Positions 226-46,411 of a stretch of DNA of 64,000 nt are shown piece by piece. The stretch spans positions 179,619-243,618 of the forward strand of contig JBMNIF010000001.1 in assembly GCA_050950765.1 (NCBI GenBank), in the 5' to 3' direction. Within the stretch, counting starts at the first letter, position 1. The number at the start of each line of letters is the position of its first letter. This DNA is from Bdellovibrionota bacterium. GTDB lineage: Bacteria; Bdellovibrionota_C; UBA2361; JAAYZI01. The notes under the pieces were generated by a model. It searched no databases, was not told where the DNA came from, and saw only the letters and a program-made list of their open reading frames with translations. Position numbers and translations under genes: made by a program.

Positions 226-720
226 ATAATGGCAGATCTGGCTGCAGGGTTTAGTCGGCTTTGTAGCTGGATAATGGCAGATCTGGTGCCACCCTTCAAC
301 TTTGCTGCTTTAAGCTGCGATCTGGTCGCTAGTATCTGGTGCCACCCATTAATTTGGCTGGATCTGATAGGTTTCGGCTAGCTTTAGTTTTGGTGCCACC
401 CTCTAGGGATGGCGGACGGTGGGCTAGCGTCTGGTGCCACCCTCTAGGGACGACGGATCAGCTACGGGGGTTAAAAAACTGGTGCCACCCTTCCAGTTGG
501 CTGGATTTGCAGATTTTGTGGCTTTGGCTTTGGTGCCACCCTTCAGCGTTGCCGCTTTAAGCTGAATATCTGGTGCCACCCTTCAACTTTGCCGCTTTAA
601 GCTGCGACTGGCTTTGGTGCCACCCTCTAGGGATGGCGGACGGTGGGCTAGCGTCTGGTGCCACCCTCTAGGGACGGCGGATCAGCTACGGGGGTTAAAA
701 AACTGGTGCCACCCTTCCAG
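226..720 (+). repeat. Tandem array 1 of core GGTGCCACCC (reverse orientation relative to most other arrays), 10 cores
   Basis: Cores at 285, 338, 392, 433, 481, 532, 572, 616, 657, 705; spacings 53,54,41,48,51,40,44,41,48; 392-496 is nearly identical to 616-720. Confidence 0.95.
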
Positions 721-3158: not shown

Positions 3159-4349
3159 TTATGTTGTTAGTATTTTGCTATCTATTCTGTCATATAAGCT
3201 GTTTAAGTCACGTTGAAAGATCTCAAAAGTGTAACGTTCTTCGGCAAGTTCGTGTGCGGCATTCCCTATTTTATGGCGCAGATCTGGATCTGAAATTAAT
3301 TTTTTTAATCCTTGCGCATAGCTATCGGGTGTGGGATCTGTGAGGATTGAAACGGTGTTGTTTAAAACCTGTGTGTGCGTTGGAAGATTTGTCGCAATGA
3401 TTGCTTTACCGGAATGTAGATATGAATATATTTTCATGGGAGTGTTGTTCCCACGTAGTCTGGGAGAAGCTAAAATGTCAGCTTGAAGGAGGTAGCTTTT
3501 TAAACGATTGACAGCTCTACGTCCTGCAAGGTGTGCTCTATCTGAAAGATTTAATGCTGAAATCTTTGTTTTCCCTGCTGAGATATGTTCATCACTACCA
3601 CCAATAATAACGAGATGTGCTTTATCAAAGGAGTGCGCAATTTTTGCAAAAGCATCAATCAAAAGACCGCAGCCCTGATAAGGTTCAAGGTTCCCGACAT
3701 ATAGAATAACCAAAGAATCAGGGGGGATGTTTAATTCTTCTCTAAGCGTCTGCTGTGAAGTTGTTTGAGAATTATCTAATCCAAGGAGAGATATGTCTCG
3801 TAAGATCTGAGTGTCCTGTGAACCCTGATTGTAGGCAATGGCAGCGAGAGCATCGCAAACAGGAACTACTGCCATACTGTGTTTAATGGCTCGTCCTTCA
3901 AGAAAAGAGAGTAGCGGGAGAAAAGGACGAAAAATGCGCCATTTTTCAGTTAATTGTTGTGCTATTGATGAATCCATGTCGTAGATATACGGAATTTTCC
4001 AAAATACTTTGATTAGCATTGCAATGAAAACAGATTCTTCTACGGCATGAACTAAGTCATAAGGATTTTTTCTATTTTTCCAAACTAGCTTCAAAGCAGT
4101 AAATAAAAAAATGATATCGCAAAAGAGTTTTTTAACGGAGATACCAGGGGCGATATTGTTTAGAAAAAAAGGTGCTTTGATCCGTATATGATTAACATTC
4201 GGTATGCTTATGTCAGTCCCTTCGTGATATGTTAAAAGATCGATAGAGTCTTCTTTTCTTGTGGCAAGAACTTGAACTGCTAATCTAACAGCTATCGGAG
4301 TGCCACGGTCTTGAAAAAACGGTTGTGGTGCTAAAAATAAAATACGCAT
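3159..4349 (-). CDS. Glycosyltransferase family 4 (GT-B)
   Basis: MRILFLAPQPFF start (ATG 4349; the ORF-track extension to 4445 lies in repeat DNA), YVGNLEPYQG and NTPMKIYSYLHSGKAIIAT GT4-like motifs. Confidence 0.85.
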   Translation of the reverse strand: MRILFLAPQPFFQDRGTPIAVRLAVQVLATRKEDSIDLLTYHEGTDISIPNVNHIRIKAPFFLNNIAPGISVKKLFCDIIFLFTALKLVWKNRKNPYDLVHAVEESVFIAMLIKVFWKIPYIYDMDSSIAQQLTEKWRIFRPFLPLLSFLEGRAIKHSMAVVPVCDALAAIAYNQGSQDTQILRDISLLGLDNSQTTSQQTLREELNIPPDSLVILYVGNLEPYQGCGLLIDAFAKIAHSFDKAHLVIIGGSDEHISAGKTKISALNLSDRAHLAGRRAVNRLKSYLLQADILASPRLRGNNTPMKIYSYLHSGKAIIATNLPTHTQVLNNTVSILTDPTPDSYAQGLKKLISDPDLRHKIGNAAHELAEERYTFEIFQRDLNSLYDRIDSKILTT

Positions 4350-4391
4350 AGCATGGGATGATAAAACAAAAATTGTAAAAAGGACACCCGA

Positions 4392-4448
4392 CTTGTCCCT
4401 GGTGCCACCCACCAGCGCTAAGCCCTTGTCACTGGTGCCACCCACCAG
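4392..4448 (+). repeat. Two GGTGCCACCC cores downstream of the RAYT-like gene
   Basis: CTTGTCcCTGGTGCCACCCACCAG twice (cores at 4401 and 4434, 33 bp apart). Confidence 0.9.
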
Positions 4449-4660
4449 TACGACCTGCTTTGCTGTTTTTGCTCTTCTGACAGCCTTTTTTCTGCTTATG
4501 CCACTGCCAGCAAGCTTAGTTCACCTTAAATTTCCTTAAATTTGATACTACAACTTACTATTAATTGACTATTTTCAGATTTTAGATAGATCTTCCCTGT
4601 TGAAATTTAGATTTCATATTATTAACGGGTCAAAAAAGCAGCTTTTTTACATTACTTTTT

Positions 4661-5629
4661 TCAGGTCGCCACCCCGCAAAGCCTACCTACAATAGGCATA
4701 CTCGGACGAAATGCCCCATAAACAAACTTGGCTGAAATATCACCTTGCTTCCACTTCTTCCAAGCCTTTCTACACTCTTCACAAAAAGCCTTATATTCTG
4801 CTATCGCCTTTATCCGTAACTCCTTAATCCAACAAATTAAATACGGCGTACGTGTCTTCTTCTTAGGTACATACGCAATATTTATCGATTGCTGCTGCAC
4901 TTTACGCATCCCCATAAAATGCCCCTTCCTTTCAAGTGCAATCTCTTCTTCCCTTTTTGAAATCTCTGTCATTATTGTTTTAAAGATCTCTTCAGACGTA
5001 AGGTTTTTTGATTCTTCAAAACAATTCTTCCAAGCATCAGGGGTAATCTTAAGCTCATGACAAGTGTGCGGAAACATATTAAGCATTTTTAATAAAATAG
5101 CATCGCTTATTTTATGAAGTCTCTGCGGTAACTTACGTAAATTAGTAGAAGAGGTATACTTACCCTGCACTGTTAAAGAACCTGATTTATACATTCTAAA
5201 ACTACTACACCCTTCCCAATCAGCAGCGTGTGCAACGAGTCCTGCTTTTACAGGATTTATATAAATATAGACTATCTTATCGATAACATCATTATGAGTT
5301 ACCAAACGTTGCTCCTTAAAACGTCCATCCCAAACGTTTCTCCTATATTGCGGTGTTAGTTTCTTAATAGCACGTGCAACTGCACTTTCCATCTCTCCCA
5401 TAAATGCAGAGATGTGCTTTCCTTCACCAACTAATATCATGTGAAAGTGGTTACTCATCCAATTAAAATGAGCAATTCTAACACGATGGTGCTCTTGGCA
5501 ACGTGCCATAATCCCTAACAGGATCCATTTCATAAAAAGGCGTGCTAGAAATGGCAAGCCAGATAATGTTCTATTGGTGACATGTACCACCATTTTATTA
5601 GGATTTCTCCTATCTCTACGATTTCTCAT
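4661..5629 (-). CDS. REP-associated tyrosine transposase-like HUH (Y1) endonuclease with long C-terminal extension
   Basis: VHVTNRT, HUH motif MSNHFHMIL, VWDGRFK, catalytic-Tyr motif YIYINPVKAGLV and DWEGCSSF match the RAYT/TnpA(REP) Y1 pattern; flanked by repeat arrays. Confidence 0.85.
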   Translation of the reverse strand: MRNRRDRRNPNKMVVHVTNRTLSGLPFLARLFMKWILLGIMARCQEHHRVRIAHFNWMSNHFHMILVGEGKHISAFMGEMESAVARAIKKLTPQYRRNVWDGRFKEQRLVTHNDVIDKIVYIYINPVKAGLVAHAADWEGCSSFRMYKSGSLTVQGKYTSSTNLRKLPQRLHKISDAILLKMLNMFPHTCHELKITPDAWKNCFEESKNLTSEEIFKTIMTEISKREEEIALERKGHFMGMRKVQQQSINIAYVPKKKTRTPYLICWIKELRIKAIAEYKAFCEECRKAWKKWKQGDISAKFVYGAFRPSMPIVGRLCGVAT

Positions 5630-5779
5630 AAGACAACTCCAGAAAAAAAATAAAAATAATTAATAAATTGGCAGAATTGCCGGTTAGCTTGGCAGGATTG
5701 CCAAATTCTAACGCCTAATTGTCGCTAGAGTTGGGATTTTATTGTGGGTAAAAATGAAAAAAGTTTGGAGATTGGGATT

Positions 5780-6252
5780 GGTGCCACCCTTTAGTGCGAG
5801 GATGGTGTTAGAAAAAGAAAAGAAGGGTGGCACCAGTTTTACCCCCGTGAAGACCTAGCTGATCCGTTTTACAGTTCCAGCCCGTCCGATTGTCCCTGAA
5901 GGGTGGCACCAGTGACAAGCCTGCAACAATTGCTGATTTAAGGGCAAAAAGAAGGGTGGCACCAGTTTTTTAACCCCCGTGAAGACCTAGCTGATCCGTT
6001 TTGCAGTCCCAGCCCGTTCAGTTGTCCCTGAAGGGTGGCACCAGTGACAAGCCTGCAATAATTGCTGATTTAAGGGCAAAAAGAAGGGTGGCACCAGTTT
6101 TTTAACCCCCGTGAAGACCTAGCTGACTCTGTTTTCAGTTACAGCCCGTTCGGTTGTCCCTGAAGGGTGGCACCAGTTTTTACCCCCGTGAAGAGCTAGC
6201 TGATCCGTTTTGCAGTCCCAGCCCGTCCGGTCGTCCCTGAAGGGTGGCACCA
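5780..6252 (+). repeat. Array 3 upstream of the RAYT-like gene: one inverted core plus 7 tandem GAAGGGTGGCACCA cores
   Basis: Inverted core at 5780; forward cores at 5825, 5901, 5954, 6033, 6086, 6165, 6242 (modules 76,53,79,53,79,77 bp). Confidence 0.95.
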
Positions 6253-7342: not shown

Positions 7343-7554
7343 TCTTTCCTTATCTCCTTAATCGAGATGATAGATATTTTTACAAAGAATAACCACTCCT
7401 TTCATCTCCTGACTTCTGAGTTTTTTGTCTAAAATTATTTTTTTAAGGAGTTAACTTATTAAAAAATAATGAGAAGTTTTGAAAAACATTAAAAATGCCT
7501 AAAATATTTTCATATAATGCTATCCACCAGTAGGCTAAAAGCAGGTGCCACCCA

Positions 7555-12014: not shown

Positions 12015-12399
12015 TTTGTCTCCTATTTTTTACTGTCCCGTAGACTACGGAAACATGTCTACAGAACAAAAAATGTCAATGGTTTTTTAAAACTTTCATA
12101 AAAACTTAATTAAATAAATATGTTGGAGGAAATATAATATTAGAAAATCTAAATATGAAATTAAATTATTGATATGGACTACATAAAAAACGGGAATTTA
12201 GGTCGTTATTGTGGACGAAAAATTTTTTAGGTGCTTCAAGTGCGAAGTCGGGAAAAGTAGGTGCCACCCATCACCTAGAAGCAAGGTTAAAAATATAAAA
12301 AAAGGGCAGCACGTATTTTTTGTTTACGTACCGCCCTCTACATTCTATCACATAATTATATCTGCAAAGGTAATAAAAGCTCAATAAAACAGGGGTGTT

Positions 12400-15456: not shown

Positions 15457-15617
15457 TGAAGGGCGGCACTTTTTACCTTCGTAAAAATCTAGCTAATTCG
15501 CTTTGCAGTTGCACCCCTTTTAACTGTTCTTAGAGGGTGGTGTTTCTACCTCCGTTAAAATCTAACCAATTCGTTTTTTAGTTGTAGCCCCTCAATCGTC
15601 ATTGGTGGGTGGCACCA
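15457..15617 (+). repeat. Degenerate core/module-A repeat cluster between methyltransferase and GT4
   Basis: GAAGGGCGGCAC, GAGGGTGGTG and TGGTGGGTGGCACCA (core 15607) separated by module-A-like spacers. Confidence 0.85.
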
Positions 15618-17787: not shown

Positions 17788-18270
17788 GAGGGTGGCATTT
17801 TTAACCCCCGTCAAAATCTAGCTGATTCGTTTTGCAGTCGCAGCCTGTTCAATCGTCCCTGAAGGGTGGCACCAGTGACAGCCAGCTACAAAGAAGGGTG
17901 GCACCAGATCTGCCGAATTTTGGATTTTTGCTAATGTCTTGATATTATTAGATGTTATGATTTTGAAGTTTGGATGTCCTATTTACGAAGCGTCTGCAAC
18001 GCTGAAGGGTGGCACCAAATTTTATCCCGTCTTAGTGAAGGGTGGCACCAGTGACAGCCAGCTACAAAGAAGGGTGGCACCAGATCTGTCGAATTTTGGA
18101 TTTTTGCTAATGTCTTGATATTATTAGATGTTATGATTTTGAAGTTTGGATGTCCTATTTGCAAAGCGTCTGCAACGCTGAAGGGTGGCACCAAATTTTT
18201 GACCTTCGTGAAAACTTAACCAATTCGCTTTTCAATATCAGCCCGCTCTGTTGTCCTTAGAAGGTGGCAA
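17788..18270 (+). repeat. Tandem core array (6 perfect plus 2 degenerate cores)
   Basis: Cores at 17864, 17896, 18007, 18040, 18072, 18183; spacings 32,111,33,32,111. Confidence 0.95.
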
Positions 18271-22669: not shown

Positions 22670-23391
22670 AGCTTTTGCTAATGTCTTAATATTATTAACT
22701 ATTGCAATTTTAGAGTTTGGATGTCCTATTTACAAAGCGTCTGCAACGCTGAAGGGTGGCACCAGATTTTTAACCCCCGTGAAGATCTAGCTGATTCGTT
22801 TTGCAGTTGCAGCCCGTTCAATCGTCACTGAAGGGTGGCACCAGAACTGCAGCCGCCAAGATCTGACAAATCTGCTTATACTGAAGGGTGGCACCAGTTT
22901 TTTAACCCCCGTGAAGATCTAGCTAATCTGTTATGCAGTTGCAGCCCGCCCGATCGTCCCAGAAGGGTGGCACCAAAACTGCCGAATTCTAACTTCTGCT
23001 AACATCTTGATATTATTAGCAGCGCTGGTGGGTGGCACCAGTGATAGCTAGCCATAAAGAAGGGTGGCACCAAAACTGCCCGATTTTGGATTTTTGTTAA
23101 CGTCTTGATATTATTAGCAGCGCTGGTGGGTGGCACCAACGACAGGCAGCTACAAAGAAGGGTGGCACCAGATCTGCCGAATTTTAAGGTTTTGTTAATG
23201 TCTTGATATTATTAGATGTTGTAATTTTGAAGTTCGGGTGTCCTATTTGCAGCGCTGAAGGGTGGCACCAGTGATAGCTAGCTACAAAGAAGGGTGGCAC
23301 CAGTTTTTTGACCTCCGTAAAGATCTAGCCGATCCGGTTTTGTAGTTGCAGCCCGTTCGGTCGTCCCCCAGATTTCTGAAGGGTGGCACCA
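22670..23391 (+). repeat. Tandem core array (11 cores) between tolC and rpsB
   Basis: Cores at 22754, 22833, 22886, 22965, 23030, 23062, 23128, 23160, 23260, 23292, 23381. Confidence 0.95.
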
Positions 23392-36744: not shown

Positions 36745-37505
36745 CTAACTTTTTACCTCCGTAGAGATCTAGCCGAACCGTTCTGCAAGTTGTAGCCCGT
36801 TCGGTCGTTACTGGTGGGTGGCACCAGATCCACTAAGCTATCGCTGCCAATTAGGACACCCGCTTTTAGCTAAAGGGTGGCACCAACGACAGCAGCTACA
36901 AAGAAGGGTGGCACCAAAACTGCCAGATTCTAGGCTTTTGTTAACGTCTTGATATTATTAGATGTTGTGATTTTGAAGTTTGGGTGTCCTATTTGCAAAG
37001 CGTCTGCGTCCCTGAAGGGTGGCACCAGATCCAAGCCAAACCAAAGCCCCATTAGCCAGCTACAAAGAAGGGTGGCACCAAATTTTTAAACAGCCCGTCC
37101 GGTCGTTATGGTGGGTGGTACCAGTGACAGCCAGCTACAAAGAAGGGTGGCACCAAATTTTTAACCTCCAGTTTTTTGACCCCCGTTCTATCGTCCCTCA
37201 AGGGTGGCAACCAGTGACAGCCCCGATAAAGAAGGGTGGCACCAAAACTCTGAAGGGTGGCACCAAAACTACCTGATTTTGGGTTTTTGTTAACGTCTTG
37301 ATATTATTAGATGTTGTGATTCTGAAGTTTGGGAGAAAACTCTAGTGGGTGGCACCAAATTTTTGACCTCCGTGAAGATCTAGCCGATCCCGTCTTGCAG
37401 TTACAGCCCGTCCGGTCGTTACTGGTGGGTGGCACCAGATCCTCCGTCAACATCTAGCCGATTCGGTTTTTAGTTGTAGCCCGTCTGATTGTTCTTAGAG
37501 GGTGG
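36745..37505 (+). repeat. Tandem core array (about 10 perfect plus 3 degenerate cores) between convergent proA and lptB
   Basis: Cores at 36816, 36875, 36906, 37017, 37070, 37145, 37234, 37255, 37347, 37427; degenerate at 37113, 37202, about 37500. Confidence 0.93.
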
Positions 37506-45360: not shown

Positions 45361-46411
45361 TCAGTTTTTTAACCCCCGTGGAAATCTAGCCGATTCATTT
45401 TTTAGTTGCAGCCCGTCCTGCCGTCCTTGAAGGGTGGCACCAGTTTTTTAACCCCCGTGGAAATCTAGCCGATTCATTTTTTAGTTACAGCCTGTTCTAT
45501 CATCCTTGAAGGGTGGCAGCAGATTTTTGACCTCCGTAGAGACCTAACCGATTCGGTTTTTAGTTGCAGCCCGTTCAACCGTCCTTGAAGGGTGCCGTTC
45601 TTGGTGGGTGGCACCAGTGACAGCCAGCTAAAAAGAAGGGTGGCACCAAAACTGCCGAATTTGAAACTTTTGTTAACATCTTGATATTATTAGAAGTTGT
45701 GATTTTGAAGTTTGGGTGTCCTATTTGCAAAGCGTCTGCGACGCTGAAGGGTGGCACCAGTGACAGCCAGCTAAAAAGAAGGGTGGCACCAAAACTGCCG
45801 CATCCTTGAAGGGTGGCACCAGATTTTTGACCTCCGTAGAGACCTAACTGATCCCGTTTTTTAGTTGCAGCCCGTCCCGTTACTGGTGGGTAGTACCAAA
45901 ACTGCCGAACCGATAAAGAAGGGTGGCACCAAAACTGCCGAATTTGAAACTTTTGTTAACATCTTGATATTATTAGAAATTGTGATTTTGAAGTTTGGGT
46001 GTCCTATTTGCAAAGCGTCTGCGACGCTGAAGGGTGGCACCAAATTTTTAACCTCCGTAGAGACCTAACCAATTTGTTTTTTAGTTGCAGCCCGTCCCGT
46101 TACTGGTGGGTGGCACCAAAACTGCCGAACCGATAAAGAAGGGTGGCACCAAAACTGCCGAATTTTGGGTTTCTACTAACGTCTTAATATTATTAGAAGT
46201 TGTGATTTTGAAGTTTGAGTGTCCTATTTGCAAAGCGTCTGCGACGCTGAAGGGTGGCACCAGTGACAGCCAGCTAAAAAGAAGGGTGGCACCAAAACTG
46301 CCGAATTTGAAACTTTTGTTAACATCTTGATATTATTAGATGTTGTGATTTTAGAGTCTTTTAGCTCTAATGGGTGGCACCAAATTTTTCAGTTCCTAAT
46401 GGGTGGCACCA
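45361..46411 (+). repeat. Largest tandem core array (14 perfect plus 3 degenerate cores) between convergent hisS and nth
   Basis: Cores at 45432, 45606, 45638, 45749, 45781, 45811, 45921, 46032, 46108, 46141, 46252, 46284, 46372, 46401; degenerate at 45511, about 45590, 45888. Confidence 0.95.

Follow-up and report, generated by a model that had tools for sequence, protein, structure and literature searches.

The window, by which we mean the whole 64,000-nucleotide stretch of Bdellovibrionota DNA analyzed here, contains 69 matches to the 11-mer core TGGTGCCACCC at no more than one mismatch, compared with 0.34 expected, and 62 exact copies. In the 2.64-Mb, five-contig genome 943 exact copies are present, and the 1,083 matches with up to one mismatch fall into 178 clusters, which are mostly head-to-tail arrays. 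The core is a near-palindrome of the form GGTG-C-CACC. In 157 of the 178 arrays the cores are arranged head to tail in a single orientation, and inverted doublets of the REPIN/BIME kind are not the main form. The arrays are intergenic; several lie 3' of convergent genes, others between divergent genes, and both orientations are seen. The window also encodes an HUH Y1 protein, and the features of relevance are the following:

284 to 714, plus strand: array of 10 exact cores TGGTGCCACCC, head to tail, which includes the stems at 395-413 and 545-556
395 to 413, plus strand, with a duplicate at 619-637: bulged stem GCCACCC-TCTA-GGG-A-TGGC, a private variant and not a family feature
545 to 556, plus strand: stem AGCG-TTGC-CGCT, one copy genome-wide, z -0.62
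4399 to 4415 and 4431 to 4449, plus strand: two stem-loops 3' of the HUH gene, CTGGTG-CCACC-CACCAG and ACTGGTG-CCACC-CACCAGT, respectively, z -2.6 to -2.7
4661 to 5629, minus strand: gene for the 322-aa RAYT/TIRYT-like HUH Y1 protein (P0001), assigned by motifs, PF01797, NF047646 and an AlphaFold model
5779 to 5835, no strand assigned: upstream end of the gene unit, with a core at 5825-5835 (minus strand) towards the gene and an extra inverted core at 5779-5789 (plus strand)
5825 to 6252, minus strand: array of 7 cores adjoining the upstream end of the HUH gene
15603 to 15617, minus strand: solo core with ACCA partner arm (TGGTG-CCACC-CACCA), both flanks unique
17864 to 18193, minus strand: array of 6 cores with two module-C copies carrying the G-to-A variant stem at 17989-18003 and 18165-18179
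22754 to 23391, minus strand: array of 11 cores between divergent genes, with the ACCAG partner arm on two cores (23030, 23128)
36816 to 37437, minus strand: array of 11 cores between convergent genes, with ACCAGT on both end cores (36816, 37427)
45432 to 46411, minus strand: array of 15 cores, with the module-C stems AGCGTC-TGC-GACGCT at 45731-45745, 46014-46028 and 46234-46248

The core is perfectly invariant while the adjoining modules share only about 79% identity with one another, and simple decay of old ends does not account for this invariance. The commonest module is present in 183-189 copies genome-wide. The pentamer directly 3' of the core is TTCAG in 307 copies, ACCAG in 178 and TTCTT in 128, plus minor classes, and within the genome the 5' and 3' flanks of the core assort independently (base before the core against the 3' class, p = 0.80). 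At the ends of the arrays, coreless module bodies were found after the last core (23 full and 21 partial) and before the first core (16 full and 19 partial), and these ends do not reveal whether the cassette is core-first or core-last. Targeting of the lagging strand as for IS608 is expected to result in a replication-strand bias of the arrays. No such bias was observed, with 41 versus 44 arrays in one replichore orientation and 47 versus 42 in the other (p = 0.65).

The protein P0001 possesses the motifs NHFH (residues 60-63) and YIYINP (residues 121-126) and thereby a single catalytic tyrosine of the Y---NP type. It scores 29 bits against the Pfam model Y1_Tnp (PF01797), 67.4 bits against the NCBIfam model REP_Tyr_transpos (NF047646), which is under the 80-bit cut-off, and 17.7 bits against the IS200 model, for which the cut-off is 55 bits. 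The closest PDB sequence is 4ER8, and the AlphaFold model of P0001 (pLDDT 88, pTM 0.87) has its best fold match in the same entry, i.e., TnpA-REP bound to the REP hairpin (E 3.4e-6), followed by the TnpA enzymes of ISDra2, IS608 and IS200. The C-terminal ~170 aa (residues ~150-322, window 4661-5180) are confidently modelled as a mostly helical part for which no fold match was found in the PDB; this C-terminal half is conserved among 15 homologues, with C266 and C283 being near-invariant. The genome encodes six copies of the gene that are 99-100% identical, plus one fragment. The fragment (G000:C2:8863-9087) is 84% identical to residues 246-322 and is located directly 3' of a full copy.

The six copies align over a conserved unit of about 1.4 kb, in which no tnpB partner was found. 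The gene is linked to the core: in all six copies the core upstream of the start (-206 to -196) and the core or cores about 220-260 nt past the stop codon face each other. It had been proposed in the preliminary description that an ssDNA-type HUH enzyme stands behind the repeats, and this guess was right, since a 322-aa Y1 gene with a TnpA-REP-like fold was found whose six copies are bracketed by inverted cores. The two ends of the unit are asymmetric. On the downstream side each gene copy carries one or two full stem-loop cores, and the stem-loops seen in the window at 4399 to 4449 are conserved on the 3' side of 6/6 copies. The upstream core is followed by the T-rich run TTCTTTTCTTTTT and forms no hairpin (-0.5 kcal/mol, z +0.23). 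An additional inverted core comes after this run. The listed GTG start of a glycosyltransferase ORF (3159-4445, minus strand) overlaps the hairpin cores at 4399-4449, and the true start of this gene probably lies further in than the listed GTG.

The hairpin at the downstream end is (A)CTGGTG-CCACC-CACCAG(T), 17-19 nt in length, and it is built from the core TGGTGCCACCC plus a 3' arm; its 19-nt form is ACTGGTGCCACCCACCAGT. If the core is followed by ACCA(G), the sequence (C)TGGTG-CCACC-CACCA(G) results, in which the 11-mer provides TGGTG as the 5' arm, CCACC as the loop and the first base of the 3' arm. This core-embedded stem-loop folds with -6.4 to -6.9 kcal/mol and a z of about -2.6. The 3' partner arm is present on 215 of the 943 cores (TGGTGCCACCCACCA, 215 occurrences) and absent from about 77% of them; the extended pairings CTGG...CCAG and ACTGG...CCAGT occur 69 and 22 times genome-wide, respectively. 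Within the window, 9 of the 62 exact cores form the complete stem-loop, and the commonest form of the core folds at a z of about 0.

In the preliminary description it was claimed that hairpins generally accompany the core in different modules, and the stems it quoted all exist (395-413 and 619-637, 545-556, 45731-45745, and TGGTG-CCACC-CACCA). Folding of the flank families is at the level of shuffled sequences, however, and most of the module-adjacent stems are private or inherited. The stem at 395-413 (-5.2 kcal/mol, z -1.75) has two copies genome-wide, which are a local duplicate, and it has been lost from the sibling units at 432 and 656, with the 432 sibling folding at -1.6 kcal/mol (z +0.96). 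The stem AGCG-TTGC-CGCT of the 545 unit is absent from the related units at 284 and 571 of the same array. The module-C stem at 45731-45745, which directly precedes GAAGGGTGGCACC, is moderately stable (-6.3 kcal/mol, z -2.0). Over its 20 distinct copies, 84.2% of the cells are paired, compared with 82.8% after shuffling, and 63 of 500 shuffles are as high. The variant of this stem that was said to keep the pairing loses the innermost pair; one pair is broken in 10 of the 20 variants, and mutated copies simply break the stem.

The covariation analysis over genomic copies that had been suggested as a check gave no genuine compensatory change in the module-C stem among the 20 distinct copies, the "double" changes all originating from one poorly aligned outlier. 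For the core-embedded stem-loop, mutants in the 5' arm of the core, e.g., TAGTG... with T at position 13, have no matching change in the 3' arm (odds ratio 0.96, p = 1.0), and within the genome the base preceding the core does not covary with the one that closes the stem (p = 0.80). Around 900 distinct core contexts the local pairing probability is on average the same as in shuffled flanks. The 25 commonest 3'-flank families have a mean z of -0.55, with one family below -2, and the 25 commonest 5'-flank families a mean z of -0.25, with three below -2, while the commonest module (~185 copies) folds at z +0.6. When consensus structures were computed for both strands of the nine largest module families, no conserved internal stem emerged, and RNAalifold mainly pairs adjacent near-palindromic cores of these families with each other. 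The other stems listed originally are one-off or inherited accidents and probably by-products of the module sequence.

In most genomes of the phylum the exact core is found at background level, with 37, 16, 15 and 11 copies in a few. In the related genome with 37 exact copies (G043, loci L206-L210), five regions were sampled, and the 15 cores read there all precede a T-rich stretch (TGTTTT in most cases), with no partner arm on any of them. Short simple spacers separate these 15 cores, and a search of this genome at E <= 1e-10 gave no homologue of the HUH protein. The hairpin is dispensable for the persistence of the core, as 77% of the cores lack the partner arm, the flanks are independent and the cores sampled in G043 are hairpin-free.

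These data bear on a model in which every module must contribute a hairpin, either at the core or beside it, the HUH enzyme reads hairpin plus core in ssDNA as IS200/IS605 TnpA and TnpA-REP do, and unrelated modules have converged on this combination. The nearest structural relatives of P0001 have all been solved bound to DNA hairpins, the core-embedded hairpin is real and the module-C stem reaches a z of -2.0, all of which would fit such a requirement. We nevertheless regard the model as very unlikely given that the z-scores of the families are near zero, the pairing probability is that of shuffles, the commonest module folds at a positive z, the 395 and 545 stems exist in two copies and one copy, respectively, the module-C stem does not covary, mutations in the core are uncompensated, and the partner arm is missing both on most cores and on the sampled cores of G043. 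A convergence of modules on core plus hairpin as a need of the enzyme, as had been put forward in the preliminary description, thus is not borne out, with about 77% of the cores lacking the partner arm and most module stems being private or inherited. The combination is no general rule because the stem-loop is completed in about one fifth of the cores and the other stems are one-off or inherited. Of the hairpins listed originally, the core-embedded one stands and recurs at the downstream end in the enzyme family, while the 395, 545 and module-C stems do not hold as features of the repeat.

By six-frame search, 109 of the 124 searched genomes of the phylum encode homologues of P0001 with 25-39% identity, often with several per genome, while a word-indexed protein search yielded 16 homologues only. 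Named relatives of the transposase and of the Tex protein indicate Bdellovibrionota as the phylum; an 871-aa ORF of the organism has no relatives. For the comparison, 109 homologue loci were collected with their flanks and inverted repeats of at least 11 nt were scored; the comparison genomes are mostly fragmented metagenome assemblies, from which repeat arrays may be lost. An inverted repeat of at least 11 nt is present at 49 of the 109 loci, and in the 38 of these taken as end pairs the upstream copy is located between -60 and -320 and the downstream one between +150 and +420. The heads of the repeats follow the pattern (C)TGGT[GAC]C..., such as TGGTGCGTCCCA, TGGTACAACCCA and TGGT[GC]CGGGGTTAC, and TGGTGCCACCCA itself occurs at three other homologue loci. 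In 122 kb of flanks the palindrome GGTG-N5-CACC was counted 16 times and its forms with other gap lengths 1-3 times each, while 101 kb of coding sequence contain no GGTG-N5-CACC. It is located downstream of the gene at 10 loci and upstream at 2 (p = 0.039), and the hairpin is found 190-450 nt downstream of the stop codon, where the conserved unit ends. These homologue hairpins have folding energies of -6.5 to -20 kcal/mol and z-scores of -5 to -7.9.

The GGTG-N5-CACC sites were chosen on the inner 4 bp only, yet pairing of their outer arms far exceeds the chance level. The outer arms are unrelated in sequence yet paired (CTTCCTCCT/AGGAGGAAG, CCCCTTGGACT/AGTCCAAGGGG, TCGCT/AGCGA, AATA/TATT), they differ completely between loci and their length varies from 1 to 11 bp. 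Pairing was observed in 50.7% of the outer-arm cells compared with 37.8 +/- 3.4 after shuffling, 31 cells are changed on both sides compared with 18.3 +/- 3.3, and the covariation score is 0.323 compared with 0.179; for each of these three measures 0/500 shuffles were as high. In slid controls 25-42% of the cells pair. The outer stems of the homologues are thus compensatory. An asymmetry of the ends is seen in the homologues as well: T-rich ends are found upstream at 11/38 loci versus downstream at 2/38 (p = 0.012), and the stability of the downstream ends across the 38 loci shows a trend only (mean -3.7 versus -2.3 kcal/mol upstream, Wilcoxon p = 0.19). A clear hairpin is present in only about a third of the 38 homologue loci with inverted ends, and many homologue ends, above all those of the GGGGTTAC type, have no stem. 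The stem-loop is recurrent in a subset of the homologues and not universal, with most ends and most cores being without hairpin.

The covariation of the outer arms would equally be expected if CTGGTG-N5-CACCAG were a palindromic dsDNA site for a dimeric protein, either the C-terminal domain of the enzyme or a host factor, with the compensation reflecting two-fold symmetry and no ssDNA hairpin being formed. The near-palindromic core GGTG-C-CACC and the large extra C-terminal domain, which has conserved cysteines and matches no known fold, would be in line with such a duplex site. However, outer arms that are wholly different and vary from 1 to 11 bp are unlike a fixed contact surface and resemble more what selection for pairing would leave, ssDNA is the known substrate of Y1 HUH enzymes (PMC6006769), and most cores are only half-sites. 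A symmetric duplex site is therefore judged to be an unlikely explanation. Extremely unlikely in our view is a role of the stems in RNA, as terminators or mRNA-stabilizing elements unrelated to recognition by the transposase. Such roles are known for REPs (PMC3733652), and the arrays are intergenic with several of them lying 3' of convergent genes, but no T-run was seen after the hairpins, an Rfam search of the window matched no family, and arrays are also located between divergent genes and in both orientations. The position of the homologue hairpin, far past the stop codon at the border of the conserved unit, likewise speaks against a function in the transcript.

Several known systems resemble the one described here. 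TIRtrons consist of RAYT-like genes flanked by non-REP inverted repeats, some of which are self-complementary, and form dispersed, moderately abundant families (Di Nocera et al. 2013, PMC3733652); the TIRtron-type proteins correspond to TnpAY1 subclass 2.1 (Quentin et al. 2018, PMC6006769). In analogy, the RAYT-like Y1 gene is flanked here by short inverted repeats unrelated to GTAG REPs, some repeats are partly self-complementary, and the copies are dispersed singly, as dimers or in clusters. Homologues carry TGGT[GC]CGGGGT[TC]AC ends, of which GGGGTCAC fits the published motif GGGGWSAS exactly, while the commoner homologue end GGGGTTAC is one base off this motif and the end of the present genome, GGGTGGCAC, matches it at 6/8 positions. 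The 322-aa P0001 shows the trait of the long TIRYT proteins, i.e., about 240-325 aa with a C-terminal extension and NH[YF]H. In contrast to the published TIR families, which are described as 'moderately abundant', the present genome contains about 1,000 copies in head-to-tail arrays of diverse cassettes. The proteins of the related TnpAY1 subclass 2.3 are ~325 aa long, have the motif NHYH and are multicopy with "no REP" (PMC6006769). A likeness to this subclass is given by the length of ~325 aa, NH[YF]H, Y---NP and several copies per genome, as judged from Table 1 of PMC6006769. The gene copies are 99-100% identical here, compared with a mean of 75% in subclass 2.3. Bdellovibrionota are not mentioned in the 2018 TnpAY1 survey (PMC6006769).

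The E. coli REPtron is composed of TnpA-REP (RAYT) with REP/BIME (PMC3333891), and the structure of the enzyme is 4ER8 (PMC3479197). It shares with the present system that it contains the best fold and sequence match of P0001, a gene bracketed by inverted repeats, and an intergenic high-copy repeat whose stem-loop has a conserved 5' head. It differs in that the head of the repeat is (C)TGGTG here and not GT[AG]G, that most copies are non-palindromic, whereas a REP is an imperfect palindrome of 20-40 nt, and that the arrays run head to tail and do not form inverted REPIN/BIME doublets. Furthermore, the gene is multicopy and twice as long, in contrast to the single-copy, domesticated gene of the REPtron. 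The present system resembles IS200/IS605 elements (IS608, ISDra2) in its Y1 HUH catalytic domain, in having several near-identical copies and in the asymmetry of its ends. However, the tyrosine motif is Y---NP instead of Y---Q, the protein has 322 aa instead of ~150 aa, and the ends are inverted with a hairpin on one of them only, while IS200/IS605 elements carry a subterminal hairpin at each end, both on one strand. Moreover, the 1.4-kb unit lacks the tnpB partner and the arrays lack a replication-strand bias.

Taken together, we consider it probable, at roughly 0.6, that TGGTGCCACCC is the terminal inverted repeat of a long, multicopy HUH Y1 enzyme of the RAYT/TIRYT class that is present in about 1,000 copies, with the complete hairpin being optional or end-specific. 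The 11-mer would be the terminal inverted-repeat sequence of the 322-aa enzyme, and this end sequence would have been amplified to ~1,000 copies in the present genome, where the copies would delimit head-to-tail intergenic cassettes. The full stem-loop is kept 3' of the gene and in about 1/5 of the dispersed copies, and the upstream end of the gene and most of the array copies consist of the bare core followed by TTCTTT or TTCAG. The enzyme might recognize the linear core, perhaps via its large C-terminal domain; owing to its conservation this domain is a candidate for the reader of the non-hairpin core. The complete hairpin might then be an optional or end-specific element that is not needed at every copy. 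From the sequence, the core-embedded stem-loop is best read as an end-specific addition whose structure is under selection wherever it occurs; what is conserved everywhere is the linear 11-mer.

A more specific version is tentative and rather improbable: long TIRYT-class Y1 enzymes might own a cognate hairpin with a GGTG/CACC stem and a paralogue-specific 5-nt loop, which would be needed complete only at the downstream (donor) end, with the bare 11-mer acting as acceptor or target. On this donor/acceptor reading each insertion beside an existing core would regenerate a perfect core, leading to head-to-tail arrays of unrelated cassettes. If the asymmetry between the hairpin end and the bare-core end reflects the mechanism, it would constitute a variation on the choice of donor and target by Y1 enzymes. 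The element to be compared with the bare 11-mer is the 17-19-nt (A)CTGGTG-CCACC-CACCAG(T) and not any of the module-specific stems. For subclasses 2.1 and 2.3 no REP-like secondary structure was found in the survey (PMC6006769), whereas the related family studied here has a recurrent, covarying stem-loop at the downstream end. New in this work are the half-hairpin anatomy of the core, the asymmetry of the ends, the covariation in the homologues and the rejection of the other stems.

The organism is also present in anaerobic-digester and bioreactor metagenomes, which are available as short-read contigs, and no reliable signal of mobility was found in these public contigs. In three of four digester/bioreactor metagenomes the contigs join 45361 to 45441, so that a 79-nt module (45362-45440) is missing, while the fourth keeps the module. 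As this junction lies inside a 30-nt repeat, a collapse of the assembly is just as likely as a real polymorphism.

Further sequence elements related to the core or to the modules were observed. The variant AGGTGCCACCC, located at 7543-7553 and 12259-12269 of the window, has 17 copies genome-wide compared with ~1.3 expected per 11-mer; its copies are mostly solo with unique flanks, and some of them make AGGTG-ccacccat-CACCT stems. A second motif, GTGGGTGTCC(TAATTGG), which reads GGACACCCA(AAC) on the other strand, takes the place of the core directly after the 3' end of the commonest module in 36 copies. It recurs genome-wide, lies in the window within the bodies of module C, e.g., at 45700-45730, and is able to pair with CACCCAC of the core (-6.5 kcal/mol); it could represent a degenerate core or the terminal sequence belonging to a different paralogue. 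Finally, the motif GCTAATAATATCAAGATGTTAGC, which has a 5-bp stem and a 13-nt loop and contains TTGATA...TATTAT, is present in at least seven otherwise different module families, e.g., at 45660-45700 of the window.
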